DNA of 64,000 nt from Marsupella aquatica (lineage: Eukaryota > Plantae > Marchantiophyta). The notes under the pieces were generated by a model. It ran no database searches. It saw only the letters and a list, made by a program, of their open reading frames with translations, and was not told where the DNA came from. The position numbers and the translations under genes were made by a program. Where the stretch lies: assembly GCA_973895155.1 (NCBI GenBank), contig OZ316894.1, positions 14,399,680 to 14,463,679 on the forward strand, written 5' to 3'. Below, piece after piece: positions 26,426 to 64,000 of the stretch; within the stretch, counting starts at the first letter, position 1, and every line of letters starts with the position of its first letter.

Positions 26426-26443
26426 TTGTGGGATGGACGGATC

Positions 26444-29319: not shown

Positions 29320-29389
29320 TTACTCATATACACATGATGGTTAGTAACTCACACGGGCCTGGTGTATTCTGCCCAGGTGCACCCGCACA

Positions 29390-38965: not shown

Positions 38966-39208
38966 TCCATCCTCTCGGGCACAGGTGGTTCCTTGGATGG
39001 GGCGGTGAGCTCCTCCGTAGTCTGCAATGGGGAGGGAAAGGTTTCTTCAGGTGGTGGAGGGATTGGGGGTGGTTGTACTGGGGTAGCGGACGTTCGACGG
39101 AAGGGGGCGGTGGAATACCAACGGGAGGAGGTGGCGGAGTATTAGGTGGGGCCGCAGGCTCAGGGTTTGCCCAAGGCGCGGTAGTCTGCTCGCTCCTGGT
39201 TGCCTCCT

Positions 39209-40849: not shown

Positions 40850-43800
40850 CGATAATGGCTCAAAGTTGGGTATCTCGGTCCAAGCGTGATCTCCTAACGG
40901 ATTTTTACTCCGCCGCCGCCACCATACCTTGGTCAATTGTAATAATCCCCTTCCTTAATTCATAATCATTCAGTCAACTAACCTACTCCTAATCTATTCA
41001 TAATGGTAAAGATGGCTATTCGTGCTACTCTACGCTACGGCTACGGTCCTAATGACCGTATAAGTCCTAATCTAGGACCCACGTCCAGTTAAGTGACAGG
41101 TTACCCATGTCATAGTATGGGATATCAATATTCGGGACTCTTTAGTTTTGTTGTATTTTAGTTAGCGTCTGGCACTACTCAAATTGTGCCTAATATTTAT
41201 TGCCTTATGGTGAATTGGAGATTTTTCAATGGACCTTTTTGACAGTGTATGAGGGTCTGACATCCAGACTTATCGGAAAAAATGACAAAAAATCATTTAT
41301 GGCGCCAACGGATTCCATGTCGCCTACATTTCTTGTCTTATACAAATGGCTCTTTTAACATAAAGTTCCCAGGTGCAATTGGTATAAGCTCCACATTCTT
41401 GCAAACTTTTCTTTCTCAACAACTTTCAGCCCCCATATTTGTCTTTGATTGTAATGTCTTGGTCTATCGTTCTATCCCGCTTCGGGACTGGGGATATTGT
41501 CACCATCCCCATCCCTTTGGCAGACACGTACAAGCAAGTAGGGGAGAGATACTTTTGCAGAAGATTTGATTTGAACATGAATGACATTGAGTCCATTGTT
41601 TGAGAGGTTGAATCCATTGACGATATCAAAGATGCTACAACGTTCAATGTTGATGATGGTGAACAATTTTGGCATCTTAACGCTGGGATTTTGTACTCAC
41701 TTTGGGTTAGACCACCTGAAGGACTACCAGGTGTCCGCCAGGTTCCATTTGATGTTGTGGAGATTCTTCTAGTGAAGATGGAGATCACACTCCAAGTCCT
41801 TTGTTGAAGTTGAAAGTCCCGCAACATGTTTTCATTAAAGGTGAGACTTCGGGGAGCTCTAACTAGTTGGAGGTTGTGTATCGGCGAAGTGCAATGGACA
41901 CATTGCCCAAATCCACTGGTCATAGCGAGTTGTCAAGGTTCATATCAACGGGTGATTTCAGACATGAGCAAGTCTCTTGTTTGCCAAACAAGTACAACGG
42001 GAACATTGTCTTTGAATTGCCACCCATTGACAAGATGCTCTCAAAAAGGGTCTAGGCTTAGGGACATGGACCATGCCAAAGATTGCTACATTTGGACACG
42101 CATATTTCCAACCACCGCAAACGTGCAGCCAAAAAAACATTGGCAATTTGGTAAGGTTACCTGTACATGGTTTATTGAATGTCGGAACAAGTCCTGCGAG
42201 TACTTCCAAAGGAAGAAGAGGCAAACGCTAAAGCATGGCAGGGTGCTCCAAAGCTTAGTGGTCAATATGTTGTGGGTTCTTTTATTGAAGAGGGAGGTGT
42301 TGTATGTCATTAATGTCAAGCGATTCCATTTTGGTCAAGTACTGCCCTGCTCGCTTGTTTTATATGTACCCGCAAGTATTACTTGATGCAAAAACATGTA
42401 GTCATATGTCCCGCCTAGCAATTCACATAGGTGAGCATAACCATCCAGGTGAAAAACCTTCTCAAGGAGTGTAGAGAAGATGGCTGAGGATTTGATTAAA
42501 AAAAATCATGAAGCCAGTCCTCTTGCAAAACCAACAGGGATCTTGAATTCTGCTACAACGTTGATAGTGAAAGCTCTTTGCAAACATGTTGACGACATGG
42601 TTGATATCAAAGAAACTGAAATTTGGAAGTCTTTGATGGTACTTTCCACTCCCCAAAAGTTTGCATCGCTTTGTCAGAGCGTAAGGATAGACCAAAAGGG
42701 TCGGGGTGAGTTATATTTTCTCTTGCAAATGCAAAAGAGGATTAACCTTTTGTTTCTCCAAAGGTATTTGCTCCTAGGTAGGGTTGTCAAGACGATAGGC
42801 CTCACATCTTCAAAGTGACCGTGAAGGGTCATAGTTCCGGTGTAGATCTTTTGCGGCTGATGCAACCGGGTGGAAGACTCAAAGGAGCCTGGGTGAGTTT
42901 TGATGTCATGCGTTGTGTGACAACCGATTGGTTTAGTTTTAGCACGCACATCTACGACCATAACTTCCGTGCTCTTTGTACAATTTTCACATGCAAGTTG
43001 AAAGGTGAAGACACCAAGTCTTTTGAAAAGGCTTGGAGAGTTATGATAGAGGTTTGCAAGGAAAATGGATTACAGGATGTTGTCATCCAAGGGTTTATGG
43101 CGGACAATGCACAAGCAGGATGGAATGTTGTCCGCAATGTTTTTTTGGGTGGACACCCAGCCCCGGAGTGGGAGCGCTCTGATGCATTTCACTTTTATCA
43201 ATCTTTTCATCAACATTCCAAGGAAGTCCAAGTATTGGAAGAATGTCAATCAGAACATTGGAGGTTGTGGGAGAAACTAAGAAACACTCCAACGTTTGTG
43301 GTGGCGTATCGGGTGTCCCGAGAGATTGTGGTGTGGTGGCAATCAAGAAACTGTGTACCAGGAAAGCTCTTGATGCTACAAAGCTGGATATCCTGGTGGG
43401 TTGTTCGCTAGCGCCAGTGGGGGAATTTTATTTCAATGGTATGATATATATCTCCTCTCTTGTTTGTCATTGTACATCAACTTTAGACTAGCGCCAGGCG
43501 CTGATTTTATTTTCATGTAATTCACACGTTGAAACAATGATTGCAATACATTGAAGCCCATATGTCAATAAATTGCAAGAGTCAGAGATTCAAATTGTAT
43601 TTGACGTTTGTATAACATAATTGTCATTGACAGCGTTGGGCGCTGGTAATAGAATGTCACTTATTGTTGAATTTGTACTATGGCAGAGCAAAAGCGTAGA
43701 AGAAGGTGCCTTGATTCCCAATTGTACAGGGTCATAATCAAGGCATGCCTCTATGAAAGCATGGGCTACGAAGAAAAAGGTTGGTCTTTTTGAAGATTGC

Positions 43801-44410
43801 AAAGTTGACCAAAACCGTGCTCTGTCGCAAATTGCAGGATATAGTGCATACCAAAAAGGGTTGAACAAAGGAAAGGGGCCAACTATATGGGAATTGGCGT
43901 TCCGTTCTGCCGATCAAGCAGGTTTGCCGAGGTTATTTGAAGATGCGACCAACATGCTTCTTTCCAACGTGGCAAGCTTTGATTTGGAAAGAACTAATCC
44001 CCTTAACGGAGATATAGTGACAAAGTCAATGAAGAGGAAGGGACCTGCAACTAGGATTGTCTTGCCACAAGACTCCCATCGGCATGACACTGTTTTCATA
44101 ACCACACCAAATACTCTAGGCTTGAAAAGGAAAAACCTCAACAAAACTGACTTTGCCTTCATTCCCTCAACTTCTGAAGATCCTGTTACAAGAGTGGTGG
44201 ATCTCTCTGGTCTGGACACATCAGCGGGTGATAGTGATTCACTAGACAATACCCCTCAAACAACTCATGCAACAAGATCCTCTAGACCGCCGCTCAATGC
44301 CCCAGCCGCACTTCAAAATCCTCTTCCACAGACTATTCCACTGGAGAAGGATGTCCCTCTAGGTCAGTGGCAGTTGCGACGGATGTCAAAATATGGAGCA
44401 AGACCCCAGT

Positions 44411-46827
44411 TGTGACACGAGTAACGTGTCACTTAACCGAACCCAGGTCATAGATTAGGTCTTATACGGACGTTAGGACCGTAGCCGTAGCGTAGAATAG
44501 CACATATAGCCGTCCGTTGCCATTATGAATAGATTAGGAGTAGGTTAAGATGACCGAATAATTACGAGTTCAGGAAGAGGATTATTACGCGCGACCACGG
44601 TATGGTGGCTGCAGCGGAGTAAAAATCAGTTAGAAGTCACGCTTGGACCGAGGCGCCGACTTCAGCTCATTCAATGACCAAAATGGCCTGGCCTTCTCAC
44701 GCTCGGGCTCATCTTGGCACCTCCATAAGAGAGGAGCCGATGGCGCTGCGGGCCATTTTCTCATTTCCACCTTTTTGGAATTCGCGGACATTGCCATCCA
44801 CTCGCCTTTCTGATCGAATCAAGTCGACCTTTACAAGGAGATTATCGAGGGATAAGAGCGGAATATGGCAAGATTTAGTCAGGACGAGCGAGACCTCCAC
44901 AAGTAAAGGACCAACCGAGGGGGAACGTGGACTCAACGGACCGGACTACGAGGTTAGTATGACCCTTACAGCCTTGGGATTTTGGACCTTGTTTGGCGAG
45001 GTAGGTGCTAAGTTCTCCGAGACTTATTGGTACTCTTGCCCCGAGAAAGCCGCTTACGAACAAAGATATGCGAAGCTGGTGACCAAGGTAGCACTGGTTA
45101 ATTGCGAAAGGACAGCCATCACCAGGGATTCCAGCTACAACGAGCTGCGAGACTACATCACCGAACTATATCTCAGCGAGGAAGGGCTTAGATCGGTAGC
45201 AGAGGCAATTCTTGAAGTCCCAGCGAAGTTCTTTAAGCTGAAGGGCAGCCAGCGGCTTACTCAAGCGGAGTTCGACAAGATTCCGGGGTACCTAGACCAG
45301 CAGATCGCAGCCAAAAAGCGCCAAGAAGACATCAGCAGACAACGGGAAGCGGCGCATAATCTTACGTTCCTTGGGGAAAGCTCCAACGCCTTCAACTGGG
45401 ATATGGCTACCCCGATACCACCAGTGCCTCAGCCGATGACCATCGGCGTACCGCCAAACCGGTCCCAAGTCCGTCCAGTGATCAACACAGAGTGTTCTTT
45501 AGGTTCCAAGCAAGTTAGTCCGCAACTCGAACAGCGTTCTCGTAAGCAGCCAAGGACGACGATGGCCCCCGAATCAACAACGCAAACCAACGCCGCTCCT
45601 GCACCTGCCCCGGCGAACCCCCCGGCCAACCAGAACCGACGGCCCCCGGATAACCCGAAGTCCAACTTATTACAGATAATCCGTGTCCCCGAAGTAGTCT
45701 GGATCGCGATCAAGAAACTTGAACACGCGGACTATCTCAAGGAGCATCAGTTGGAGTAGTTTGCTCACTTGCTATGGAGGCCGTGCGCCACCGGGCCAAA
45801 GGAAATTTGTGAGTTCATCTCCAATTTTGACACTGACGCATCGGCCACCAAGGTTTTGGGGCAGGCCTTATCACTCACGGAGCATCGGTTAACGCAAATC
45901 TTCTGTCTGCCAACCGGGCCGGTGCCGGTTGAACTCCGAATTTGGGATAAGGAGTATATGCCGTGGCACTTCAAACCCGAGGGTAAGACGGACAACGGAT
46001 ACAAGCAGGGGTCGTGCACCAACTTAATCTGCATGGAGCGTCTTAACTTCATACGTCTTAACTTCATACGGATCATTGAGCCACGATCCGAGATTTCCCT
46101 CTGCACGATCGTGCAGGTGGAACAGTACAAATGGCGGAACTAGGCCCAATTCTTCTACCAAAGATTCTCGGGGGAGCTGAAGCGGGCTCAGGGTGGTATG
46201 GCTATTGGGGGGAAGGCTTAGTTATCTTAGTAGAAGATAGGTGAGGCACGGGGAGTCCCGGCCTGAGCAGGGTCAGAGCGCACCAAGGAGTGAGAGCCAG
46301 AGTCGAGCTTGCTGGGCAAGTGCGAGGCAGGGTCTCGTAGAGACTGGGCATCGACTGCCATTGGGCCTGCTAACCCCCTTTGAAGTCGAGTCAACCATGT
46401 AAACTGATGCTTCGCTGAGTAAATGTAGTCTTTTCCCTCTAATGTTTCCGCAAGTAACTGGTGTTGTGAGTATGCTTTGTCTGGGCAAAGGCACCATTTT
46501 AAGGGACGTACCGGGTGCAGACTAATGGTAGGGATTGCCACCCATTGTATGTCACAAGGTTCTTTCGCGTCGATGGCTTGAAAAGCCCCAAGCCAGGAGT
46601 TAGTCCGAGTCACTAACTAAGGGAGGATTCCAGCGGTGGAAGATAAAAGATACCTATGACTAGTACAAATTGCTTAAGCGTTATACCAGTAAGTATAGCG
46701 GCTTAGCCCGACTTAGGGCTAATCGGAGCCACTACACACCTCCTTGCCCGAACCCTCACCCCTACTGGTGGTCGAGGTCGCACCATGGCACTAAACTGGA
46801 TTTAAGGCCCAGGTTAGGGACGCGACA
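44411..46827 (+). mobile_element. Solo-LTR-like unit with an internal deletion, same family as 32973-41114
   Basis: TGTGACAC...CGCGACA termini; TSD CCAGT at 44406-44410 and 46828-46832. Confidence 0.9.
44674..46143 (+). pseudogene. LTR-encoded PMD-like ORF (361 aa open, then TAG, continuing in frame)
   Basis: ORFs 44674-45759 and 45769-46143 are in one frame and are homologous to the other LTR ORFs. Confidence 0.7.
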
Positions 46828-48878
46828 CCAGTGTAATGGGACTCTCTGTGGGAATTCTGATCGCGATGAGTGTCAAAATTGTATCAAGAAATTTGGATTA
46901 CATTCGTCTGACGGTGTTGTTGGAATTGTCGTGAGGGGCCATCGTCTTTTTAGGGGCAAACCCATATCCAAAATGATTTGGTTCTGCCCAAACAAAGCAT
47001 GTTATAGGAGTCACCCGCATCGTGGGGTTGATCGACTTCCTCCTGTTCCTGATATTTTTCCGGTTCTGAAGGGTACAAGCCTGTCTCCCTCTGAAATTAA
47101 GTTCCTCGAAGGGCAAGGACTTGTGCTAGCCCAAACACCAGGATTGAGTTGATCTGTGCCATCTTTGTTTGATCTCAGGATAAATGTGACCGTGTTCCCC
47201 AAAACAATAAAGTTTTTGGAGCCAAATGTCCGGCTGGGTAGTCGAAACAAGAGGAACTCAAGGCCTCAATCTAATCTTACTATGGATCACACTAAGCGAA
47301 TGGAGTCTACACGAAAAGAAGAGATGAATTTGGATGGGAATGGGATGTTCAGACTGGAAATGATTTTGGAAAGCAATTTCAAATTTGAACCCATGAGAAC
47401 CTTCAATCGCCAAGCACTTACTTTGTCCAAATCTGTATCTTCCCTGCTTGCTCTTGTGAGGACTTCTTCCGGCGGCATTCGCGTGGCAAGTCGTACATGC
47501 CTTGTAAACATCTCTATTGGGTGTACATTAATGTTTTCAAATTTGATGTTGAGGAGTCGACTCTTTGTAGCCAACCAGTTTTGACAGTGGGCAAAGTCAA
47601 GCTTGTCTTGGAGAGGCAGAACGTGAATGGCTTATAATAGAACCCAAAAATTCCGTGTAACTTGTTCTACATAACGGATAGTCACTATTTTGTCTTTAGC
47701 CAACGGATATTTTACTGGTTTGTTCAAAAGATTTTGGTTAGCGTTGGGCACTGCTTCCAGTAGTTGCTACGTTCCTTGCTTTATGATGTGCCTATAAGAG
47801 AGAATCATTAGGACATGTTCCATTTTATATGTATGTCTTTTATCTTTAAAGTCGTGTGTTCAATCATTCTGAATAATACAGTTGGCACCAGGCGCTGTTT
47901 TGTCATTTGTTTGTTGGGATACAGGGTCCATTTAAGTGAACCCATTGTGATTGATGTCATTTGGACACCAGCCTTGACTAGTGCTATTAATGGTGGGTCC
48001 CACCCAAGGGTAACTCTTTAGCCTGGACAATTTGTGAGTTATTATTGGGTATGGTCCCAATTATGTGTTATATGATCTTCTACAATAAATTGTCGTGTCA
48101 AAGGACCCTTGAAGTACTATTGAGCTCGCATGGCACTAAAAGATTTGTTAGTTTTGAAGCTAATTCCTTAAGACAAACTCATGTGATTGGCGTAGTTTTT
48201 CAGTATTGAAGGCTTCCAACCATAGGTATGTTCTGAGTGTATATAATTTATATGTAGTGGGAGAGACTTTTTCTCATTTGTATCAAGGGGTTATGGTTTA
48301 TGCTAAACTGGTAACAGGGAAAGTTTTACTGGTAATAGGTAAATTTTGGCTGTTAACAATAAAGGGTTTCCTGGTAACAGGTTATCTGTTTTCTGTTTTC
48401 TGTCATGGTTGCCATACACCTCAATTCTTACCGAATGGTGACAATGCTAAGCTCATCCGGACCACCTCTTCAAGATCTTTCCAACGCCATATTATACGTG
48501 AGTTTTCATTATGATTTGACTCAGCAATGTCAAATAAAAAATTGTTGTCGGGAAATTTTTATGTTTTAAATAAAATGGTTAGTGGGAGCAGTTTTACCTC
48601 AATCTTTTTGTCTTTTGATTTGTCTTTTTTTTACATTCTTTTTTACGGCATGGCGTCCTAGTTTTTACAGCAAAGTTGCCACAAACACAAATGCAGAAGT
48701 TCATTTTATCCAAAAACAAGTCTCTTCCTATTTGCAGCGTGCATGATGATGTGGCGTGCTGTGGAGCCAGGAATTTTGGAAAGGACCCCTAATGGGGGTC
48801 CGTAATAAGAGCATATCAACTACTATAATATCTAAATACTGCCAAAAGTGTTGGGTAGATTGTTTACAAAGTGGGTAG

Positions 48879-51800
48879 TGTTGTGGGAGAAATGAGACAA
48901 AGAGTTAGTTCCATCTTTACTCTTGGTAGAATATGTACATGTGGCTATGGCCTAAGTAGTTAGGGTAGTTACATAGGTAGTTATCCCAAAGGTAGACTTA
49001 ACTCAAGTATGAGTTACAACACTCCCCCTTTGTAACATTGGGGTTGAAATGTTACAATCAAGAGTCTACTTTGGGTATATTCAGTGGTATACAATAGGTT
49101 TTGTTTATGTCTAGCCTATTTTATAAATGGTGTAGCCATCTCAAGTCTACTATAAATGAATGTCAAGCTTCTCCTAATAGATGTCTTATAATTCATGTTG
49201 CATGGTAGAGTGTAAGTGGGCACGGGGCTTTTATGTGTAGTAGGCACCCTTGGGAAAAATATCTCCCCCTGAATTTATGAAATTAATTGGTGGAAGTAAT
49301 CATCATTTGTCGCCATGTAGGTTCTGTAATTTAGTTTCTTTCTTTATGTCCTTACTTCATGCCTTGTTGTTTGGTTTTTCTTGCCTTTTGAAGAGAAAGT
49401 CTCTTTGTTCTTTAGTTCTCCATTACTTAGTGTAAAATGGTCTTCTTAGAAGAAAATGTGGAGGACTTTCCTTTGGTTTGATGGCTTCTCTTTGTTTGCC
49501 TCCTTTGCCCGGCGTCTCGTCTGTAGCCTATACCACGATCTCCGTCTGCATTGGACGTCCTTCTCTCTCCTGGCGTTCCTCGCGTTCTCTCTTTGGTTTT
49601 TCGGGTTTGTGCTTCCTTCAATGTTCTTGGATTTATCCTCCTTGCCTTTGGTGCTTATTGTTTCTCCTCTGTCTCGCATTCTTTCCTTCAAAGTTTTCTC
49701 CCTTCGCGTTTGATATGTTCGCGATGCTGCCTGCCTTGCTCACGATCTGCGTTCGATTTCTGTAGTGTCTTCTCTCCTCTTATCTTTTCAATTGGGAATT
49801 AGGCGTAACTATGGGTGTTCCTTATGAATCAAGCTTCCGTATGGGGTCGCCTTCACGGACTGGAAGTAGGAGGTCTGATGACTCGTTCCAAAACTTGTTC
49901 CAAAATGCAGATGCGTCAGTATAACCACGTATCATCTTGGCAAATGCCCAGTGTGCCTCACTTGGCCCCCAAAACCAAAACATTTTGCGCCTGTCGAGAG
50001 AGCTTCACAAATATGATTGACGGAAACTTCCCTACATGTCGTCGATCTTGAATGACGGAGCATGCTTCATCTTGTTATCGAATTGTAACGTAACGGTTAG
50101 TTCCATGCTTTGCCCAGTGCTCCTTCAAATCGATAGGATAATTTACATTTATCCCTTCGGAGCCGAGTTGTTCCAAAAAGTTCATGGAGATCATAGTGGT
50201 GCAACGCGAGGACTGCCAGCCCCCGTTACCCCATCTGTAACACTGCTGTCTCACACCTATACAGGAGCAGTGGGGAATGGGGTATCGCACATTATCAACG
50301 TCGTGAACATCATCGTTTGGGCCCTTCAGGTAATCGGCCTCGTCGCTATCTCCAAGCTCCAAATGATGCTCCTGGGGAGAACGACATGATCTTTTCGAAC
50401 GCACTGTGCGATCGAGCGTAGATTTCACTATTAGCTTCCTCTTCCTAGGAAACCCACAAACTGACTCTTTTGGCGTCGCCGATCTTGCCAAGGTCACTTT
50501 GCTCTTGAACAACAGCACTGTACCGTGTGGAAGACAAGGGAGCCTAATGAAAAACTCCTACAATAGTACAATTCTTTTCATACTCAGCGGATGGAAGAGC
50601 TTTGAATCTTTCACCGATGGCCTCTTTTGGACAAGGGTGTTTTGTTCGCTGAAATATCAAGAGCTGTAACAGCAGCATCGCGTTCCTCCATGGCGGAATC
50701 TCGATCAGCGTAAGCTACATCACGTAGCAGAAGAGCAGCGTCTCTCTCCTCATATGCAACTATTCTCTCCGTGATAGCCGAATTTTTCTCCAAGATAGCT
50801 GCATCCCGTGCGGGCTATCATTGGCTATCGAGCGAGGCCTGCCCCTATGAGGTTGCGATGTCCTAATCGAATTCTTCTTTCTGCTTTTTGATCGTCTTCT
50901 CTCTATTGCTGTTGTCTTGCTCTTCTTATCCTTTTCACCCTGGAGGGGGATGCTGCTTTTCAGGATCGGTTACTCTCGAAGGGCGAAGGACTCATCAATG
51001 ACTGACGAAGAATGTAATCTTGTGATCCTCGGTTGGGGATAGACTTCCGTTCTGTTCTACTTTCTTCTTGAGTTCTCTTCGAATCTTCTAAGAAAAATTT
51101 CCTTATCTCCTGCTATCCTTACGAGTTCCTTATGGAATTGAGGCTGTGATCTGTGCCTTGGATTGGTTTGCTTGTGTGATGATCTCGCTGCCTGAAGTGG
51201 AGGTCGCTACTTTCTATGGTCTGCAAGTCGCGACTTTCTTCACTTGCCTCTTTTCGCACTTCTTACGCGATTGCTCCAAATCCTTCTTTCGTTTTCCAGT
51301 GATGCGACCAACGGGTTTAATTTCCCCATGTTTGTCCTGCTTTTCTGTCAGCATAGTGTCGGGAAAGCGTAGTGTCGGGAAAGAAATCACAACATCCTGT
51401 TACTGCTTCGTCCATTTCGAATGCCTCCAGCGGTAGACTCGAGTAGAACTGGAAGCAAACACAGGAAACAGAGTAGGTTGTCGTACTCCAATCTGTTGTG
51501 CGCTCATGACCAGCCGTCAGTGAGCTGGTGTTCGCTAGAAATGTTATCAATCAAAGATGTAGTTGGTGTGAGGGTCTTGCTCGCCAGGGAATGAGAAAAC
51601 ACCTTGGCCACCAACTTCCGACTCCTCGAAATGGCTGGAGTTCCAATCGCTGGCTCATTTCCAGATTCGTGAGCGCGTCAACAACACTGGCTCTGACTGA
51701 CTGTTGCTGTTGCCTTACTGCTGTACCAACTTGAAAAGCGTGCACCGAATAAGATGGCGCCTTGATATTCAATTCACCATAGCCGGGATCAATTCTTCCT

Positions 51801-52106: not shown

Positions 52107-53737
52107 GGTAGTACATTTTACAAAGTGACTTTTGGAAGGAATGAGAGCCTTCAATTTTGACTTTTGGAAGGAATCCATAAGAGAATTCAATTCATTCATT
52201 GAGTTTCTTGTGCAATGAGATTACCACAAAATGGGATAAGCAATAAAGCTCAATAAACCTACGACAACTAGGAGAGAACAAAGGATCAGCAAAGAGATAT
52301 TTTATTTTCATTTTTAAATAATTTTACACTTTTAGAAAACATCTTTTGCAAAACATCATCTTACTTGCAAATGATATCTATTATGCAACATCTTTTCCTA
52401 AAATTACATATTTTGTGCAATGACATCTTTTGTGAATAAAATTTTCTGTGCAACGCAGAACTAGTAAAATCTAAAAGACATGTCAATTGACATTCAAATT
52501 TTGTTATGGTACAATGAATTGAAAACCAGATTATGAATACAATCAAAATCAAATATGCACATCTTAATGAATTGTTATTTTATTCATCTACAAGAACTTA
52601 ATAATGAATATATGTTTAGTATATTTTTTAGACTTGTAATTACATTTTTCTTAGTGTATGTGAAACTATTTAGGCAGAGATATGATTCACCACTCTCTGC
52701 ATCTCAAGATTGAATGGGGTATTAGGGCATCTCAAAACCAGGCAGATTCCCAACTTTTAGGCTCATCACTTTATTGCGGTGCAGATTGTATACCCTCAAA
52801 GTGTGGTTGACCGAGTTAAACCCTAAACCAATAGAAATTCATAAAATCATGATCTTGTTACTCACCCATCTCTCAATGAAGCCTTTTGTGCTAAACACTT
52901 AGAAGAAAGGGTATAACCACCGTGACAGCAAATAGTAAATAGATTTGCTGTTACCAGCAAATATTCTGCTCACTCAAATAATCTATTCTACAAGTCCGTT
53001 TGATACTTCCTATCAAGTAAGTAGCGTACTTCATCCATGGTGAGAATTGGCTGACTTGATAATGTCAACTCATGCAGATCCAACTTCAAAACATTCTTGT
53101 ACACCCGATACAAATTAATGTTAGCAAGGCATATAGGGTTTCCTGTAAGTGTGCCAACAGTAAATAGTCCTCACATGAGCAACACGGGAAACAACAAATC
53201 TGAACGCAATAAGAGGCCACCAATCCCTCATTTTCATATGTCTAGATACAATTATACTACTTCCCCATGCATTCTTGCTAGTGATATCTCTCTTGCATGC
53301 GAGTCTCATGATTTCTTTTTTGGATGCTTTGATTTTCTTGTAATGTGTTTGAGTTATAATTCACTCTTTGCAAGCACTTCCTCCCATTCTTGTAGGGCAT
53401 TGCAAAGTTGGGTCCATTAAACTGATTCACTCTTGGAAAAAATTACATCAATGCACAACTCCGACGAGGATGGTTCTATCTTCAACTCTTTCTCCACTCC
53501 CTCCTATGAATATGACTCCTAGATTGTTGTGTCAAGAATTGGATAATTGCCTTCATGTTGGTCACTCTAGCAATCAAAAGACTAGACAAAACATTTGGGA
53601 ATGTTTGAAACTTCTTTCCTCGGTCTGCTTTGTGTGACACTTGTTATTTGGCCAAAACCATATCTGATCCGAAAGAGAGGGGAGGTAATCCATCAGTTAT
53701 CAGTCACTGATATCAGTCACCCCTTTTTTTTTCTCTA

Positions 53738-54162
53738 ATCTCGGAGACCTCTCCGAGATGGCGACAGTTTTTTTGGCAATCTCGGAGAGCTCTCTGAGAT
53801 CCCTACCATTTTTTTGGCAATCTCGGAGACCTCTCCGAGATGGCAACAATTGTTTTTGGCAATCTCGGAGAGGCTCTCCGAGATCCCAACACACTTCCAG
53901 GAGTATGTTGGAGACATGGTAGTTTGTTTGCTCACCATGTCAGAGAGCCTCTCCGACATACCAATTCACTCCATTGCCATCTCGGAGAGCCTCTCCGAGA
54001 TACCAAGTCTTTTTGTTGACCATCTTGGAGAGCCTCTCCGAGATACCAAGTCACTTTGCAAACCATCTCGGAGAGCCTCTCTGAGATACCAAGTCACTTT
54101 GCAGACCATCATCGACTTTCCCATTCCATTTCTAAGACCATCTCAAAGAGCCTCTCCGACAT
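53738..54162. repeat. Cluster of about 9 ATCTCGGAGAGSCTCTCCGAGAT palindromes at roughly 41-43 bp spacing
   Basis: A perfect copy lies at 53979-54001; the others differ mainly at the CpG positions. Confidence 0.9.
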
Positions 54163-54285
54163 ACAAATACAAAAAATTTGCAAGTGATACACATCACATT
54201 CACTTTTCATATATATTATAATGTGTACACAGCAACACTTCATCATTGCTACCTTCTCTAAAGCTAACCCCTGTTGGCCACTACT

Positions 54286-55073
54286 TTATTCTGTTATCTG
54301 ATATGTGCACAGGTCATAAATAATCTTCTTTCGCAAGTTTCCTACCTGGCTGCCATCAAAATCCATAGGAGCATCTCGACTTATGCGCTCTGCATAGTTA
54401 AGGATAAATACCCCACAATTTACACTATCTTCTTGTGATGCAAGGCCTGACACTAAAGTTCTAGGCCAGTTGTTTGCATCTGGTGAGGGCATGCCTCTTT
54501 GACTTGCTTCATCCTCGACATACCTTGTTAGAGTATACATGAGATACTCATTTCGAGCCTCCCAAAAGTTTCCTGATTTCTCCCAAGCGAATCTAGGAAC
54601 AACACCTCTTTTCCAGTTAAATCAATCACTGCCAACACCCAATGCTCCCTGTTTGCCTGGTGGATAGGGACCAATATCCTGTCATAATCAAATATGTTTT
54701 CTGTTTTGGTCCATCGAGCAACATTGGCAAAACAGTATACGGGCGTTGAGAGCAACGTGTAGAATGCTGTGATGAAAAATGCACACTTTGGATAGCCTCT
54801 TGATCTCCCCCTAAACTGCAACAAGGCCAAGTATGCATCGATGATATCTGAATGTAGCCATTGAGCTCCTGTTCTTCCTTCAGACAAGCATCTCATTGAC
54901 GCCCTGGTCAACTTGTAATCTACAAAGTTGAATAGTACTTCCTTGTCTGGGAGCTCTGTGGATAGACATGTGGATACTATGTCGGAAAAGTCTTGAGAGC
55001 AGACTACTTCAGCAAATAACCCAGGTATCTGGGTATTCCCACCACGTGCTGGATAGGATTGAACAGCATGGCA
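54286..55073 (-). pseudogene. Ulp1/SENP-type cysteine protease domain (Peptidase C48), one frameshift
   Basis: WLHSDIIDAYL, FFITAFY, VARWTK..NIFDYDRILVPIH, EHWVLAVID, FLDSLG, QEDSVNCGVF (His-Asp-Cys triad present). Confidence 0.93.
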
Positions 55074-56140
55074 TTAGGCATCATCTTCATCTGAGCTATA
55101 GGTCACAAAAGAAGGGTGAGCTATCTTATCACTATCACTGCTGACACTCTCACTTTCATTGTAGTCTACCTCTACTGCTCTATCATCTACAAATCTTGAT
55201 TTTCGCCTCTTTGTGTACTTCTCAGCTACACCCTTGAGCCGTTTGAAGGGGCGTGAATCAACAATCCCTTCTGCGTAAGTTGGAAGGCAAAATCTTTCTG
55301 GAGAGAAAGTTTTTGATGCTTCCTCCCATGCTTCACGGACTTTGTCCTTGTCCGATGTGTGCCATTGTTCGGACTCGATGTTCCTGTAGTGAACTGCCTA
55401 TTGGTTAAGTAGACAGTTTAAGGTAATACCATAATAATGTGGAACTTCACATTTTTATTTATCCTCACCATGGCACAATGTAAATTGCAAACTAACAACA
55501 AATGGGTTCTTGGATTCAACGTTTACTCACAATCCTGAGCATTCCCACCCTTGCCTTCTGCGGCATCCTCCTCTGAATCAGACTCAAGGACAAGCTTCTT
55601 CCACCCTTCAGGCTTCTTAGTCTCCTTGGCCTCCTCCTTCTTACTCTCCTTGCCCTCCGCCTTGGTCTGATTGCCCTGCTGTGTTGAAAGGAGTTTTGAC
55701 ACCACCGAAGCTGCTGACTCACCAAAGTAGTCATGCGCTTCCATCCCAAATACTAGTCGCCCACAATTATTGGCAGCTTTGTAGATAGCACCAAAGTGGA
55801 CATTCCAAGAAAATATGATATCGCCGGGACTGGTGATGTGCTCTATGATGCATTGCAAGGTTGCAGGCGATAAGGTTCCGGCCAATTCATCTCTCATTGC
55901 ATCATCTTCCTTTGTAAAATTGGATAGAGCATTGCTCTTTCTTGGGCACAAATCACCAGTAATTTGCTTCATATGTACCTTTGGGAGGGTCACCTCTGTA
56001 CCCTTCATGGCGAATATATCCAAATGCAGATATTGAGCCTGTCACATCATGCAAAATAGATTTGCACTTGTTAGCAACACTGGCAACACTAATTGCTAAA
56101 CTAATCCGACATCGGTCCTACCTCTCTAAACCCTAAAAAT

Positions 56141-56878
56141 CCTACCTATCTCAGAGAGGCTCTCCGAGATCCATGCTACCTATCTCAGAGAGGCTCTCCA
56201 AGATGGATCCTACCTATCTCAGAGAGGCTCTCCGAGATCCATGCTACCTATCTTAGAGAGGCTCTCCAAGATGGATCCTACCTATCTCAGAAAGGCTCTC
56301 TGAGATCCATGCTACCTATCTCAGAGAGGCTCTCCTAGATCCATGCTACCTATCGCAGAGAGGCTCTCCAAGATGGATCCTACCTATCTCAGAGAGGCTC
56401 TCCGAGATCCATGCTACCTATCTCAGAGAGGCTCTCCGAGATCCATGCTACCTATCTCAGAGAGGCTCTCTGAGATCCATGCTACCTATCTCAGATAGGC
56501 TCTCCGAGATCCTACCTATCTCAGATAGGCTCTCCGAGATCCTACCTATCTCAGAGAGGCTCTCCTAGATCCATGCTACCTATCTCAGAGAGGCTCTCCA
56601 AGATGGATCCTACCTATCTCAGAGAGGCTCTCCGAGATCCATGCTACCTATCTCAGAGAGGCTCTCCGAGATGGATCCTACCTATCTCAGAGAGGCTCTC
56701 CGAGATCCATGCTACCTAACTCAGAGAGGCTCTCCGAGATGGATCCTACCTATCTCAGAGAGGCTCTCCAAGATGGATCCTACCTATCTCAGAGAGGCTC
56801 TCCGAGATCCATGCTACCTATCTCAGAGAGGCTCTCCGAGATGGATCCTACCTATCTCAGAGAGCCTCTCCGAGATCA
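56141..56878. repeat. Intronic tandem array of about 22 units of 34 bp built on the palindrome (ctacctatctcagagaggctctccgagatccatg / ...aagatggatc)
   Basis: Directly visible. It lies in the intron that splits the MTase-like domain of copy B (56999-56039). Confidence 0.95.
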
Positions 56879-59365
56879 ATGTTACCCATAAGGGAGAGGG
56901 TGTCCGACATCGTAATTGCGGACATATTTTTCAACTATCTCGGAGAGCCTCTCCGAGATGACTTCTATTGAAATGCCAAAATTGAAGTGAACTTCTAACT
57001 TTTTTGCTTGACGCCATGTAGCAAGGTGTGTCATTCCAAATGGTGAATGAGTCAATGTGATCCAACTTCTCAGCCCAGTCAATGTGAAGGTACTCAAAGA
57101 TTGAGCGTGTGTGGGCAAATGAACCACTGTGCACAATGCACAAGAAACCGTCGTTTGTGAGTAGAGAGTCTGCCAATGTCGTTGCCACTTCTAGGTCACT
57201 GAGCCGAAATCTATTCCACACCGGAACATTATTTTCAGCCTGCGCTATGCGATAATCTGTCCCTAGCTGAACAAAGATCATATCACAACCATGGCCCTTA
57301 GGTACACCATCAACTATCCAACCTTGTTTTCACAAGCCAGCCAACTTCAATTTCTTACACCAGTCCCGGAATTCCCTCATGAATGGAGGGAGAGGCAACT
57401 TTCCCGTGGTTGGCTGATATTTGTCCTTCAGCCAAGAAGAACACTCTAGTAAGGTCATATGCTCTTTTGCATGGCAAAATTGCAGGGCAGATGTAATAGC
57501 ATGAGAGGGCCGAGGTACTCCAAGAATTTTGCAAAGATCATCCTCCGGAATTTCTGGGGCTTCTGTTGAAACTGGCTTCTTTGTGGGTTCGTCTATCCTC
57601 TTGTCGGCTTTCTTCTTTGGCCGACTGGTTGGCTTACCAGAGATTTGTGGTTTGCTTGGGGTCCCACTCGGGGTCCCGCTTGGGGTTGAAAGGTCAGGCT
57701 CCTCCTCCTCCTCATGGCCCTCTGAATTGTCCCCGGTGGCCATCCCATCCTCCTCTCCATTGTCCCACTCGCCGCTTTCTCATCCTCCTCTCCATTTCCC
57801 CACTCACCGCTTTCTCATCCTCCTCTCCATTGTCCCCGGTCTTTCTTGGCTCCATCTTCTCATCCATCGGACGACATTTGCTTGAGGTAGACCCTGGGGT
57901 TCCAAACTTTTCCTTACTTTTTTCTGCAGAACAAAGTAAGGAGTTTAGTTATCATTTTACAATGATACTATCTCGGAGAGGCTCTCAAACATATGTTAGA
58001 TGTACAATGCAAGCTAGGGTGTAAACCTTACCAGGAGTGCCTTGTTCTGAGGTGGTGTCTTCTGATTCCTTTTCTTTCTTCCCCCGAACCTTCTTCCCAT
58101 CATATTTTGGCTCTCCAAGAGGCAAAATGGCCTCCAAGTCCAATGCAACCTTTGTCGACAGCTCAAGATCTCCCAACTTTGAAGGTGCAAAAAGGTTGTC
58201 TGGTAGTTTCCCCTCCTTTAGGAGGTTGGCAGCTTCCTTCTCTTCGGGCGTAATGAACTCATTCCAATCATTGAACTCCATGAACCATGGACAATTTTGT
58301 CTCTCCCAGTCTGAAAAGACTCTTGCTGCTGGCTTCAGCCCATCTGTTGGATACATTGACAGCGGGCCTTTCTCCGTCATCCATGCAGTCAGAGCACTTG
58401 GTAACACTTTGAAAGTAGAGGCTCCAATGCTCTCCTGATGAAGTAAATATCTGACCACACACCTCTTTGCACGCTTCCTCCACACATCTTTGCTTTGCTT
58501 TGCTGGATTCCACATCTTCTTGCCCTCCTCATAGGACCGAGTCTGTACAAATTGCTTGTACATCTTGTTGTGAAACTCAACAAACTCGTCTTTGCTTCCA
58601 TTGAAGTTCTGCCACTCACCAGAATCATATGCACTCTTGGTAAACTCTGACATTATCAAACTGCCAACATGGGCAATGTAACACCACATTGACCACACTA
58701 GCAACCAAGCTCTCACTGCTGAATCACCATATACATCTGGATGGTGGTGTCGCTTCTTCTCCTCCGCGGTTGAAAAATGAACGCGGAGTAACTTGTTTCG
58801 ACACTCAGCAGGCATCACCGCACTTGCAAACAATTTAACTCGATCCAACCCCACTTGCACTTATGGCTGATCTTTCTGTTTACTCTGCAACTGGTGCAGC
58901 TCCTCGGCAATCTCCATAAACTCCTCTCCATTGCTGGATTGACAATCTGAGCAAACTTCTGCATTTTGCCCTCCCAAGACCTACAAGCTTCACTCGTCAT
59001 GAGTGCGGTTTCCTTTTGGAACTTATCCAAACTCCAGGCATGGCCAATTGCAACATCGGCTGCCATCTCCTTCGCAAGACGAATCCTCCCGTCTTCAATA
59101 TTATTCCACGACATGATGTACACAGCAACATCCTTTGTCATGCACTTGCTATACCATGTCTTTCCATGCCCATGGCTTCTTGCTGCTAAGAATCTAGCAT
59201 AACCATCCGGATGAAGCAATGTCTGATACTCCTCCAAAGGTGCCATCAACAGCTTCTTCACCCTGTCTGCATCGGTCAACCAAGATGTCTGCACAACGTT
59301 TGCGCTTATCCTGCATAAAGAAGCGACAAATGTTGGCGTCAAAGGCTTCATACCTGAAAATTACA

Positions 59366-59570
59366 TCTCTCTTGGAGATGCTCTCCGAGAAGGCATGGAC
59401 ATCTCGGAGAGGCTCTCTGAGAAGGCATCGCTCTCCAAGAAGGCACTGATATCTCGGAGAGGCTCTCCGAGAAGGGAAGGTTTATCTCGAAGAGCCTCTC
59501 CGAGGTAGCATTTTGAGAGCCAAACATTGTATGTGTGTATGTATCTATCTCGGAGAGCCTCTCCGAGATA
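59366..59570. repeat. About 5 palindrome copies inside intron 1 of copy B
   Basis: For example atctcggagaggctctccgaga at 59451 and atctcggagagcctctccgagat near 59547. Confidence 0.88.
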
Positions 59571-60339
59571 GGATTGCCTATGTGGGTGCAAAAAAACAAC
59601 AAATGCAAGAACAACCAAAAACCAAGGGGGCGGAAACTTACGCGTTGAGGCCGTGCATTGCCTGCTCAATCTTCCTGAATCCTTGTTTTCTAGGCTGTAG
59701 AAGAGAGAATCTCACGCAAGGGTGGTACTTCTGCTCGTCAGGATACTCTTCAGCCACTTGTCTCCATGCATTCAGGCGATGATTTCCATCAAACACCCAA
59801 AACATCTTACCCTTCAAAACGTGAAACTCCTCGTACTCATCACACTCCATCTCAAATTTTGCGTTAGCTTGTTCCCATAGAGGGTCCCAATCCGCGGAAA
59901 ATTCAAACATGGAGTGGGTGGCGTTATGCGCATTGGTCTCTGATATGTGGAATTCCAAAAACTTGTCCACATACCCATTCTTCACGAAGTCCTTCTTCAT
60001 CTTCAGAATGGAGCTCTGTTGGAGAGTCCGAACTGCCTCCATTGTCATCAACGACATAGTGGAATCCGAGGTGGCTCTCTGGGCTTCCCACTTGGTTCAG
60101 CTCCAAATGAAAGCAAGTACTCCCCAACAATCCCTTCGAATGCACCTTTGTTCAGACGTTCAGCAGACACATTTTCAAAGTTCAGAACCTTCGGCTCCAG
60201 CTTCTTCACTGTGTGAGTTTCCCGACCACTGGCGGTGCTCTCTGCTATCTTTGATCTGGTCTGCCGACCAGACGATGAAGGAGAGGGAGTGGGTTGCTTC
60301 CTCTTCCCTGTCATTTTCAAATCTCACCAACTACTGAAT

Positions 60340-60740
60340 TGCACGAGCACAACTTGCACAACACTTGCACCACCCACAGCTCAGTCGCAGCAAGCTCAAT
60401 CACACCGCTCGCACAGCACTCGCACTCGCACCGCCACAGCTCACCGCACTCAATCGCACCGCCACAGCTCAGTCGCAGCAAGCTCAATCACTGGCAGTGG
60501 CACAACACTCAATCACACTGCTCGCACAACACTCGCACTCGACCGCCATAGCTCACCACACTCAATCGCACCGCTTCCAGCACTCGCACCACCACAACTC
60601 AGTCGCAGCAAGCTCAATCGCACCACTTGCACAGCACTCAATCGCACCGCACAACTACTCGCACTCACAATCGCACTCAATCGCACCGCACTCACAATCG
60701 CACTGCTTCCAGCACTCGCACCACCACAGCTCATAGCACA
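60340..60740. repeat. Imperfect short repeats (cactcaatcgcaccgc; cagctcagtcgcagcaagctcaatc) upstream of copy B
   Basis: Repeated C/A-rich words. The overlapping ORFs here are low-complexity artefacts. Confidence 0.75.
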
Positions 60741-61365
60741 CAGAGCGCGGAGAGGGAAAGATCACAAAGCAACTTACGCTCTCCAAGAAATATGAGGTAA
60801 ATTGCATCCGCACTCGCACTCGCTCGGCCTCAATTGCTCGCCTTTCAAATGAGGAAAGGCGAGAGATGGCGGGGACTCACCAAAGTAGTCATCATCATTA
60901 TTAGGCAACGGAAGATCTAGGGGCATCACAACTGACTTCACTATCGCCGTCATGCAGGTTGAGTCCCATCCAAACAACGGGAGATCTATGGGACCACTCA
61001 TTGATTACAAGTGGTAGGGGCCACGGGAGGAAGTTGACATGTTAGTAGTTTATTGGCTTATATGTTGTCGTACTCTGATAATGATGAATGGCTAGATTTG
61101 ACTCATGTCAGAGTCGCAACACTGAAGTACCTGTACAGATGCTTTCATTATTACTACCCCTTCACGCCATAATGTCCTTGGTACGATTGATTCCAGACCA
61201 GATAAGATTTCCTATCATTCCTTGGTATTAATGAGTACGATCGTTGAATGACTGGATTTAATTCCAAAAAATATTCAGTACTTGCACGACATGTCAGGCC
61301 AGTCTCAAGTTCCAGATTGTCTCCGAGATATGTCACGCCCCCATGTCAGATAAGCTCTCCACTCT

Positions 61366-61672
61366 GACATGTAAAGTGGGGACGTAAGTCGGAGAGGCTC
61401 TCCAAGATGACATGTAAAGTGGGGACGTAAGTCGGAGAGCCTCTCCGAGATGACATGTAAAGTGGGGACGTAAGTTGAAGAGGCTCTCCGAGTTGACATG
61501 TAAAGTGGGGACGTAAGTCGGAGAGGCTCTCCGAGATGACATGTAAAGTGGGGACGTAAGTCGGAGAGGCTCTCCGAGTTGACATGTAAAGTGGGGACGT
61601 AAGTCGGAGAGGCTCTTCGAGATGACATGTAAAGTGGGGACATAAGTCGGAGAGGCTCTTCGAGATGACATG
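61366..61672. repeat. Tandem array of 7 units of 43 bp, each with one palindrome
   Basis: gacatgtaaagtggggacgtaagtcggagaggctctccgagat starts at 61366, 61409, 61452, 61495, 61538, 61581 and 61624. Confidence 0.95.
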
Positions 61673-61824
61673 TCATGGAGGACCCATGTCAGAGCCTCTC
61701 CAAAATTGAATATTACACAAGATCAGACCTTGGAGAGGCTCTCCGAGATGACATATCAGGTTGGTGATAACTTTGGAGAGCCTCTCTAACAAATATTGGG
61801 CCTAATCCTTGCTACACACCTAAA

Positions 61825-62477
61825 GATGGCATCTCGGAGAGCCTCTCCAACATCCCTAAACCCTTCATACCTGCGCAAGATGGTATCTCGGAGAGCCTCT
61901 CCAACATGGGTCAAGGCTACATACCTCCGCAAGATGGCATCTCGGAGAGCCTCTCCAAGATGAAACTTGGTGAGATCCGGTGCAAGATCTAATCTCGGAG
62001 AGCCTCTCCAAGATGGGTCGAGGCCTCATACCTGCGTAAGATGGCATGTCGGAGAGCCTCTCCAAGATGAAACTTGGTGAGATCCGGTGCAAGATCTAAT
62101 CTCGGAGAGCCTCTCCAAGATGGGTAGAGGCCTCATACCTCCGCAAGATGGCATGTCAAAGAGCCTCTCCAAGATGAAACTTGGTGAGATCCGGTGCAAG
62201 ATCTAATCTCGGAGAGCCTCTCCAAGATGGGTTGAGGCCTCATACCTGCGCAAGATGGCATGTCGGAGAGCCTCTCCAAGATGAAACTTGGTGAGATCCG
62301 GTGCAAGATCTAATCTCGGAGAGCCTCTCCAAGATGGGTTGAGGCCTCATACCTGCGCAAGATGGCATGTCGGAGAGCCTCTCCAAGATGAAACTTGGTG
62401 AGATCCGGTGCAAGATCTAATCTCAGAGAGCCTCTCTAACATGGGTCGAGGCTTCCAAATGGCATCTGAGAGAGCCT
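61825..62477. repeat. Tandem array of about 5 units of 107 bp, each with two palindromes
   Basis: gaaacttggtgagatccggtgcaagatctaatctcggagagcctctccaag recurs at 61962, 62069, 62176, 62283 and 62390. Confidence 0.93.
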
Positions 62478-62544
62478 AATGGACACCCTAAACTTGCTGT
62501 CAAAGGTTCTTGGATGTTGGTCCAATAAACTTAGTCACTGTCAA

Positions 62545-62836
62545 TAACAGTTTTCACGCTCACAAGGGTGCGTTGTCAAGAAGGATTCTTACATATTCAA
62601 CGAGGGAAGAATATTGTAACAATTTTTACGCTCAGTCTGGGCGATAAGGTACTCTGACAAAACAATCTTGACATATTCAACAAAGAAAGAAGCGAGTCTA
62701 ACAATTTTTACGCTCTGTCTAGGCGGTAAGGTACTCTGACAAAACAATCTTGACATTCAACAAAGAAAGAAGCGAGTGTAACAGGTTTTACGCTCGGTCT
62801 GGGCGATACGGTACTCTGACAAAACAATCTTCACAT
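62545..62836. repeat. Tandem repeat of about 80 bp (3-4 copies) upstream of copy C
   Basis: aaca.ttttacgctc.gtct.ggcg.ta.ggtactctgacaaaacaatcttgaca..ttcaacaaagaaagaagcgagt is repeated. Confidence 0.85.
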
Positions 62837-62933
62837 ATTAGTATACACCCATCGCGTCACTCGATCGACTACGTCCCTGTCGACTTCCGAAGCTGAATCT
62901 GCATAGCCCTTCCCGAGGTCGAGGAGAGGGAGA

Positions 62934-64000
62934 ATGGACCCTAAGGACGTCTCCATGGGTGAAGTCAGTGACATAGGCTTATCGATGGACGAGGTAATAT
63001 CAAAGCACGCATTGTCATTCGGGATGGATTTTTGAGGATTCGATAAGGAGCCACCTCGAATTCCTCTTTGTAGATTGCTCCCCATGGAGGTTGTTCGAAC
63101 CTTACAGAAAGAAAGTGCATCGATCGAGAAGTTGAAAGAATCATTCCGTGTCACCGGGTACAACTCGCGCATTGGGATGCCTTTCTACGTTCAGCCTGCG
63201 AATGCCTATGGGGTTTCTCAGATATGCACCAGCGAGATCCGAGACTCTTGGGATCCAATCTGGGTCGCAGAGAACGACAAGTTTGAGGAAGAGTGTGATA
63301 CGGACCCAGCGTTCCATATTCTAAAAGATAATATGTTTTGGTTGTTTGACGGAAATCATCGATTGTACTCGTGGTCAATCGTCATGAGGGAGAATCCGGA
63401 CAACTTGAAGTATCATCCTCGTGTGATTTGCGTCATTTTCAATGGTGACAGAGGTTCGCTAGTTGAGCTCGAGGTGGCAATGCACACCGTGAACCAGTAA
63501 GTTCTATTCGTTAACTGTTGTTACCCCTGTCATTCATTTTGGACCAAACATGCTTTGCGAAAGTGTTCATTCCCCAATTTTTGCTAGCGCCCAGCGCTAC
63601 TAATTCCTTTTCATTGCATCCAAGCTTGGACAAGCAGTCGTTGAGCCTTCTTGGATTCTTGACGCGGACAGAATTTCCTGAATTCTGTCGCATGATCTTG
63701 ATCACTATAAGCCACTCATCGACAGCGCGAACATGGCAAAGTTTGAGGCGATCCGAAAGAAGACGAGAAAGGGGTCTTGGTTTACACATAAAATGCCACA
63801 GGATGCTCTCATCTACATTCTGTGTGTGGACAAAATCAAGTCTTACTCAAATCAATTTAAGTCTGATATGGCTTTAGCCAAAGCTCAAGGGGCTTCTTGG
63901 TCAGAAGAGGAGACCACAAAGAGGCATGAGGCAATGATGAAGGAGGCGACCAAAGATTGGTCGATCAAAGTGACGAAGATCACCCCTTTACTTCATCCGG
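62934..64000 (+). pseudogene. ParB/Srx-like gene copy C (A subfamily), running off the window end
   Basis: MDPKD...SFGMDF*GFDKEPPRIPLCRLLPMEVVRTLQ...LFDGNHRLYSW...AMHTVNQ; intron 63497-63623 (acceptor appears mutated AG to AA); exon 2 LGQAVVEPSWILDADRI...KGSWFTHKMPQDALIYILC is nearly collinear with copy A. Confidence 0.8.

Follow-up and report, generated by a model that had tools for sequence, protein, structure and literature searches.

A multi-copy liverwort gene with a predicted ParB-type fold and two palindrome families that follow its lineages in Marsupella aquatica

Gene copies, shared intron and palindromes

The 64,000-nt stretch of the liverwort Marsupella aquatica that was analysed here (GenBank assembly GCA_973895155.1, contig OZ316894.1, positions 14,399,680 to 14,463,679; referred to as the window) contains three copies of one gene, of which A and B are encoded on the minus strand and C on the plus strand. 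The gene is probably transposon-borne, and the N-terminal domain (N-domain) of its product is predicted to adopt a ParB-type fold. Short palindromes of two types are found in the introns and flanks of the copies. An overview of the genomic features is given in Table 1.

The N-domains of A and C are 65% identical and form one clade (A/C), whereas B shares 39-42% of its residues with either of them. Gene A is interrupted, its 5' and 3' parts being separated by a nested long terminal repeat (LTR) retrotransposon together with roughly 3 kb of further repeat sequence. For gene B, residues 38-1072 of a homologue from the liverwort Riccia sorocarpa (P0005) are colinear with positions 60308-55664, and the tail motif of B is found in an open reading frame (ORF) at 55077-55397. 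Contigs from four public runs (two organisms, two studies) were aligned to B and C at 90-100% identity, and their number per run was 152-883 for B and 176-562 for C. The A/C and B families are thus both multi-copy, with many sequence variants.

A preliminary description of the locus had claimed that the three copies share a phase-2 first intron directly after the codons for AMH..N. This intron, with GT..AG borders, was read in all three sequences (AMHGLN in B), and for B it has the same span as described before. No other intron precedes it in the coding part of the gene: P0005 residues 38-259 are colinear with 60308-59644, and a second Riccia homologue, P0001, has one open frame up to the intron. 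Splicing is called from the GT..AG borders, the restored frame and the colinearity with the Riccia proteins. Among the public-run contigs aligned to B and C, no joint that skips the entire first intron was found.

Table 1 Genes, introns, palindrome sites and further elements in the window (positions count from the first nucleotide of the window)
Feature	Position	Strand	Remarks
Gene A, 5' two-thirds	30210-32150	minus	ParB-fold N-domain (predicted) and middle domain; pseudogene
Gene A, methylase-like 3' part	18610-19955	minus	located by tblastn of the methylase-like exons of B and of Riccia proteins; weak N6_N4_Mtase match (E 0.021)
Gene B	55077-60310	minus	ParB-fold N-domain (predicted), helical middle, methylase-like end; pseudogene
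Gene C (A/C clade)	62934-64000	plus	pseudogene; truncated by the end of the window
First intron of A	31453-31583	minus	131 nt
First intron of B	59311-59641	minus	331 nt
First intron of C	63497-63623	plus	127 nt
Four A/C-type sites, 3' flank of gene A	17297-18496		17297, 17421, 17541, 18484; three inside a 124-bp tandem repeat
Two A/C-type sites, directly after the middle domain of gene A	29999-30098		29999, 30086
One A/C-type site, first intron of gene A	31515
Three A/C-type sites, 5' flank of gene A	32670-32966		32670, 32816, 32954
One A/C-type site, first intron of gene C	63586
B-type arrays beyond the Ulp1 gene	53737-54160		6 sites at up to 4 mismatches; 41- and 43-bp units; leftmost B-type motifs
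34-bp tandem array in a later intron of gene B	56142-56886	minus	22 B-type sites; between coding matches 57003-57509 and 55664-56032
Single B-type sites (n = 2)	56938 and 57971
B-type arrays between the 5' ends of B and C	61365-62452		19 sites; 43-bp units, scattered singles, 107-bp units
80-bp tandem repeat upstream of C	62617-62839		2.7 units
Ulp1-type cysteine protease domain	54289-55073	minus	spread over two reading frames; immediately downstream of gene B
Ty3/gypsy LTR retrotransposon	22918-29937	minus	gag, zinc knuckle, protease, reverse transcriptase, RNase H, integrase; 550-bp LTRs, 93% identical; nested in gene A

The first introns carry different palindromes, as the preliminary description had reported: the sequence AGCGCnnnGCGCT in A and C, and a palindrome of the GGAGAG type in B. 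The A intron contains AGCGCCATGCGCT at 31515-31527 and the C intron AGCGCCCAGCGCT at 63586-63598, both of which fit AGCGCnnnGCGCT. This A/C-type palindrome is 13 nt long, GC-rich, of the AGCGC type and without a GAGA motif. Exact matches to AGCGCnnnGCGCT number 8 in the window (0.01 expected; none of 100 shuffles reaches 8), and with one mismatch allowed 13 sites are found, whose flanks are mutually unrelated. The majority (11 of 13) are no more than 1.6 kb away from an A/C coding piece (binomial P 7e-7); if a tandem triplet is collapsed to one site, 9 of 11 are (P 1.4e-5). The two distant sites, at 43490 and 43632, may mark a further element fragment. Most other C-type copies have a G at 63593 and thereby the perfect palindrome AGCGCCCGGCGCT (depth 5414.7 of 6000 in run X2); relative to this family palindrome, the C copy of the window has a CpG-to-CpA change at that position. 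The 80-bp unit upstream of C contains an imperfect 17-nt dyad, with pairing at 6 of 8 arm positions, which is different from either palindrome type.

In the first intron of B, five copies of the B-type 21-mer core TCTCGGAGAGSCTCTCCGAGA are found at up to 4 mismatches (59370, 59402, 59452, 59485 and 59548). The exact 13-mer GGAGAGSCTCTCC has 21 matches in the window (0.00 expected), two of which lie in this intron (59456, 59552). In total there are 54 B-type sites, all within 53863-62421 and none in the mapped coding segments. Many are organised in arrays, for which Tandem Repeats Finder gives periods of 34, 41, 43, 43, 50 and 107. The array with 34-bp units is considered intronic because long Riccia models are colinear with gene B across it. 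Repeat numbers in the first intron differ among B copies, as seen from contig joints within 59319-59547. The palindromes have been multiplied by tandem duplication through the introns and flanks of their own family.

Variants of the B-type site (53863-62421) are mostly CpG-to-CpA and CpG-to-TpG changes. The commonest are G>A at two CpG positions, with 26 and 19 cases among the 88 changes that make up the twelve commonest classes, and the pattern suggests the signature expected of methylated CpG. The entire 34-bp array has an identical CpG-to-CpA change in the left arm and was therefore amplified after that mutation.

The two palindrome types occupy mutually exclusive stretches of the window: all 54 B-type sites but none of the 13 A/C-type sites are located within 53863-62421. 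Their layout is nevertheless parallel, each type being found in the 5' flank of its own gene, in the first intron, in the region after the middle domain and in the 3' flank. A fourth copy comes from a metagenome-contig scan with a 4-row alignment, which gave one locus from 598 pattern matches. This 1265-bp contig (L001) is a B-clade relative with an N-domain 51% identical to that of B and 39-40% identical to those of A and C. It has in-frame stops and the same phase-2 intron (698-802), which contains TCGGAGAGGGTCGCCGA, identical to the B-type core at 15 of 17 positions (reached by none of 200 shuffles), and no A/C-type site. Clade and palindrome type hence agree in four of four copies, A and C with the AGCGC type and B and L001 with the GGAGAG type. 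The claim that protein subfamily and palindrome co-vary stands as far as this concordance and the exclusive stretches go; it is limited by the presence of only two clades, that is, of a single switch. That the association holds even within the same intron, as had been emphasised, is seen as well, yet little is gained from the intron location, since all non-coding parts of each element are filled with the motifs.

The core of the palindrome is retained while its surroundings are not. With seven B-type array types aligned by their dyad, at least six types agree in 18 of 21 core columns, compared to 2 of 36 flank columns, and these two are the bases that extend the dyad to 23 nt. The introns of A and C are unalignable (score 11; shuffled sequences give 9.8 +/- 1.8, and 87 of the 300 score as high), but both keep the palindrome, at differing donor offsets of 58 and 89 nt. 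Similarly, the best local alignment between the introns of B and L001 is anchored at the palindrome match (0 of 300 shuffles). The palindrome core behaves as a constrained cis element, retained where spacers, flanks and entire introns have diverged.

The encoded protein and its element context

Named relatives of the protein were found only in R. sorocarpa, where they form 53 protein clusters on many chromosomes; further relatives are limited to one Logan protein and one metagenome contig. P0005 (1104 amino acids (aa)) is 36-44% identical to the N-domains of the window. No Pfam family was recognised for the gene in the window pieces or in P0001-P0025 and P0026-P0048, apart from sub-threshold methylase matches. 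In the AlphaFold model of P0005, residues 91-460 mostly have pLDDT values above 90. The top Foldseek rows for this model are ParB, Noc, KorB and sulfiredoxin (best E 1.2e-2, probability 0.97). In the VIA structure search, the top 12 rows are all N-domains of the ParB family (ParB, Noc, KorB, PadC; Z 8.3-6.8), and rows that align the N-domain alone give a root-mean-square deviation (rmsd) of 2.6-3.4 A over 93-100 residues. Two Noc rows extend over 183-196 residues within model residues 109-468, but with an rmsd of 8.4-10.4 A. A ParB-type fold of the N-domain is consistently predicted from this Riccia model. A sequence profile search of the PDB gave chance-level rows only and no ParB. The motif DGNHR is invariant across the family and is a candidate counterpart of the GxxR-type nucleotide-binding box of ParB.

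The helical middle domain reaches a pLDDT of 79 when folded alone, and the methylase-like end is below 50 in the full-length model. Sub-threshold matches to PF01555 (N6_N4) are found at the same motif-I region in three members (E 0.021, 0.087 and 7.8e-4), and the C-terminal part is probably methylase-like, degenerate and inactive. In a protein-language-model search, fungal DUF3723 clusters are nearest to the Riccia homologue P0002 (score 0.95, with 180 of 256 features in common). A Pfam scan of 36 members at E <=5 gave no DUF3723 match, and the literature searched contained no publication with both DUF3723 and ParB; DUF3723 as a relative of the ParB-fold family is a lead only.

All three window copies are decayed. 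In gene A, the reading frame is broken by a frameshift and by at least three in-frame stops. Gene B has 1-bp frameshifts near 60049 and 58930, one base missing in each case, and a TAA at 58861-58863; in other B copies the missing bases are present and CAA is found in place of TAA. Gene C has TGA at 63033-63035 and at 63679-63681, and its intron acceptor is mutated at 63623, where other C-type copies mostly have G; at 63679 they mostly have C (CGA). The TGA at 63033-63035 is common to most C-type contigs (T>C depth from 0 of 667.5 in run X1 to 464.6 of 1333.7 in run X4), and many C-type copies may have multiplied after this nonsense mutation.

Directly downstream of gene B, the Ulp1-type protease domain is recognised by Pfam Peptidase_C48 in two segments (E 7.6e-16 at 54528-55073; E 8.1e-06 at 54286-54621). 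Loose contig ends accumulate at 62840 (16 contigs over the four runs), where many copies diverge leftward, and at 62459 (3 contigs), which suggests repeat-unit boundaries at these positions. An 8-nt word common to the sequences near 53707 and 62545 was considered as a candidate for element ends and judged to be a chance match. No ParA-type family was found among the window open frames scanned; the sole ATPase match is a host-like gene of the AAA family at about 13.3-13.9 kb (exons at about 13329-13929; Pfam AAA, AAA_lid_3).

A 312-bp direct duplication (98% identical, 15946-16572) lies near these ATPase exons. A GC-rich block at 32972-46828 contains large inverted duplications (32972-33587 and 46212-46828, 33925-34309 and 38585-38965, 39324-41112 and 44413-46211) and members of a repeated ORF family without a Pfam match (21347-22438, 37432-38064, 39212-39946, 45631-46227). 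For a 762-aa ORF at 35227-37512, a weak Atlas lead to plant Transposase_28 clusters was obtained (score 0.87). Directly upstream of the start of gene B, a low-complexity tandem repeat rich in CGCAC and CTCA, with periods of about 39 and 130, is located at 60340-60760.

Candidate readers of the palindromes

The favoured explanation is that the ParB-fold protein binds the palindrome of its own family as a dimer and that this serves the self-recognition of its copies; a probability of roughly 0.45 is assigned to it. A protein of the element is the most economical reader of the palindrome, and it is plausible but unproven that the gene product takes this role. Each gene lineage would be flanked and interrupted by its own palindrome, and the palindromes would be protein-binding sites, probably occupied by a dimer, with the ParB-fold protein rather than another element protein as their putative reader. 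Binding might lead to regulation or de-silencing of the own copies, as in the VANC/VANDAL system. Alternatively, it could recruit a DNA-modifying activity, as proposed for algal ParB-type accessory genes, or the protein could act as a DNA-bound platform whose methylase end is now degenerate. The split of the A/C and B lineages would have been accompanied by a joint change of protein and site.

Several observations weigh against this explanation. The four concordant copies represent two clades and one switch, so that common descent alone gives four of four and the comparison has no statistical power. No A/C-type site is present in the 470-bp upstream stretch of C itself, the 5' side of which abuts the B-type arrays at 61365-62452. 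All three window copies are pseudogenes with stops or frameshifts. Support for the fold is middling, which is how the search tool itself grades a Z of about 8, and no Pfam ParB family (PF02195 or related) was matched by the window pieces and P0001/P0002 at E <=1 or by 36 members at E <=5. In bacterial ParB, the sequence is read by a helix-turn-helix domain and not by the N-domain, and no helix-turn-helix was recognised here: the model of the middle domain had no Foldseek matches, and a wide VIA search gave only generic helical rows (Z <=6.3). At the C-terminal end, the best PF01555 score is 19.9 bits (P0032), compared to a gathering cut-off of 26.7. The catalytic motif of N6/N4 methylases, (D/N/S)PP(Y/F/W), is absent, its place being taken by DMPS or DIPT in the family and by QLGT in the B copy of the window.

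Another protein of the element could also be the reader. The palindromes would then bind an unseen transposase, in the manner of subterminal repeats in CACTA and Mutator elements, or the Ulp1-domain protein, and the ParB-fold gene would merely share the history of the element. The arrays are found toward both outer sides of the 8.7-kb B block in addition to its interior, a placement like that of subterminal transposase sites, the Ulp1 gene belongs to this block, and the ParB-fold protein has neither a recognised DNA-reading domain nor, by comparison with bacteria, an N-domain expected to read sequence. The densest arrays, however, are located inside the introns of the ParB-fold gene (22 and 5 sites) and not at the ends, and no Ulp1 remnant was found beside gene A although palindromes are present there. 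The searches for mobility functions enter on both sides. Among the window open frames scanned (26, 86 and 9), the nested LTR retrotransposon aside, there was no transposase family, and the inverted-repeat search of the window gave palindrome arrays only and no terminal inverted repeats; this leaves room for another element protein as the reader, and it also counts against the proposed transposase. A reader other than the ParB-fold protein is on balance considered unlikely.

If there were no reader at all, the palindromes would be family-specific satellites spreading by slippage or unequal exchange, and the match between clade and motif would reflect shared descent only. The single switch between two clades covers all four concordant copies, the number of array units differs between copies, and palindromes favour slippage. 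CpG decay dominates the variants as well, which suggests that the sites are methylated and decaying. Against this reading stands the retention of the core: seven array types with unrelated spacers have it in common, thirteen A/C-type sites keep theirs amid unrelated flanks, the motif persists in the A and C introns though these are otherwise unalignable, and a 15/17 match survives in the same intron at 51% protein identity in L001. A core that is kept while the spacers diverge argues against pure drift, which should erode both alike, and a satellite without a reader is quite unlikely.

Lower still is the probability given to an action through the host, with either transcribed hairpins that feed small-RNA silencing or a host protein, for instance a GAGA-binding BPC factor, that would occupy GGAGAG/CTCTCC half-sites. 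Perfect 21-23-nt palindromes in introns would form hairpins once transcribed, CpG decay points to methylation, and a BPC-type gene (Pfam GAGA_bind, E 1e-33) is encoded at 50075-50557 on the minus strand, 3 kb from the arrays. Hairpin silencing, however, leaves the retention of the motif in diverged copies unexplained, conservation spans the whole 21-23-nt dyad and not only its GAGAG part, the palindrome of the sister family is unrelated, GC-rich and without GAGA, and the BPC gene lies outside the motif-bearing block. A host BPC/GAGA factor was set aside as the main reader on account of the conserved whole dyad and the sister motif without GAGA. The proximity of the BPC gene to the GGAGAG/CTCTCC arrays is probably a coincidence, with the gene as a possible host reader.

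Comparison with known systems and significance

The closest parallel by description is PAG3, which Plavaka elements and other giant DNA transposons of red algae carry as an accessory gene (Petroll et al. 2025; bioRxiv 10.1101/2025.02.11.637652). According to the available text of that report, PAG3 has a ParB-like N-domain by remote homology (HHpred best match 7BNR_B) fused to a putative nucleic-acid-modifying domain, tandem inverted-repeat arrays are found beside the gene, and the authors propose binding and modification of the own element. The family described here likewise combines a predicted ParB-like N-domain, a putative modifying-type domain and adjoining inverted-repeat arrays (54 B-type sites in at least six arrays around and in gene B; 11 of 13 A/C-type sites near A/C coding pieces), and 7bnr_B is also among its top VIA rows. 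The partner domain of PAG3, however, is a 2-oxoglutarate (2OG) oxygenase as opposed to a degenerate N6/N4-methylase-like domain, and PAG3 elements have a known DDE transposase, whereas none was found in the window. The host here is a land plant, the arrays are found in introns, and two sister lineages carry different palindromes. The likeness is one of description.

The same applies to an accessory gene of the large DNA transposon Sola1-1_Ec32 of Ectocarpus, which encodes a ParB-like domain and an N4-cytosine/N6-adenine methylase in about 1100 aa (PMC12477816). Its product has been proposed to bind the element that carries it and to modify it (PMC12477816). Its length is that of P0005, and its two-domain plan is the one predicted for the present family. 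Its methylase domain is recognised outright, in contrast to the sub-threshold matches and lost catalytic motif of the present family; its host is a brown alga, and palindrome arrays are unmentioned in the available account. Fusions of a ParB fold with an N6_N4 methylase are also enriched in phages (PMC12704722). These phage and prophage proteins share the domain order predicted here, with the ParB fold followed by a PF01555-type methylase, but they are prokaryotic enzymes with intact catalytic motifs, and the available account does not mention palindrome arrays (PMC12704722). Fusions of ParB-HTH with Dam are known from chlorophytes and chytrids (PMC4738411). DUF3723, a conserved Starship cargo gene of fungi with unknown function (PMC9156397), is likewise an accessory gene of giant mobile elements and the nearest group in the language-model search; it differs in that no Pfam DUF3723 match was obtained here.

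The comparisons with VANC-motif pairs and plasmid incompatibility groups that the preliminary description had drawn both find some support. VANC motifs are tandem repeats in the introns and upstream regions of VANDAL elements in Arabidopsis (PMC5735166), a layout that is paralleled here, and the VANC anti-silencing proteins with their motifs are a tested functional analogue (PMC5735166; PMC10398659). In both cases, family-specific and fast-changing motif repeats are found in the introns and upstream regions of the own genes, related families differ in their motif, and repeat numbers vary. As far as the available sources go, VANC differs by its DUF1985 and DUF287, neither of which was obtained in Pfam scans of the gene or its relatives, VANC motifs are non-palindromic 9-mers, and VANDALs have a Mutator transposase. 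The resemblance is functional and does not indicate membership.

The plasmid-partition analogy is made apt by the ParB-type fold predicted in the model of the Riccia homologue. With bacterial and plasmid ParB-parS, KorB and Noc (PDB 7bm8, 6sdk, 7ol9, 8qa9; PMC12704722), the family has in common the predicted N-domain fold, clusters of palindromes near the gene and putatively distinct site specificities, insofar as these systems are covered by the available sources. It differs in that no ParA partner, helix-turn-helix or Pfam ParB match was found in the searches given above and in being a eukaryotic, intron-bearing gene in a multi-copy element. A partition role is therefore unlikely.

A more far-reaching proposal is a ParB/parS-like self-recognition code in land plants, in which ParB-fold dimers with a dead methylase would bind self-seeded palindromes, and protein and palindrome would have co-diversified into exclusive specificity groups, like plasmid incompatibility groups. 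This is at present doubtful. If true, the A/C and B families would represent a natural specificity-swap pair, and the same logic could reach algal PAG3-type genes and perhaps the DUF3723 cargo of fungal Starships.

It was only in 2025 that giant transposons of algae were reported to carry ParB-like accessory genes close to inverted-repeat arrays, and self-binding is still a proposal for these genes. Within the literature searched, only the red-algal paper matched and no land-plant case was found. The locus adds a bryophyte case, namely a probably transposon-borne, ParB-like accessory gene with putatively cognate inverted-repeat arrays. Its intron motif is kept across deep protein divergence, which is hard to account for without a function of the motif. 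With two sister families in one genome, one with 13-nt GC-rich and the other with 21-23-nt GGAGAG-type palindromes, and with predicted ParB-fold domains that are 40% identical, the locus offers a ready reciprocal comparison of binding.

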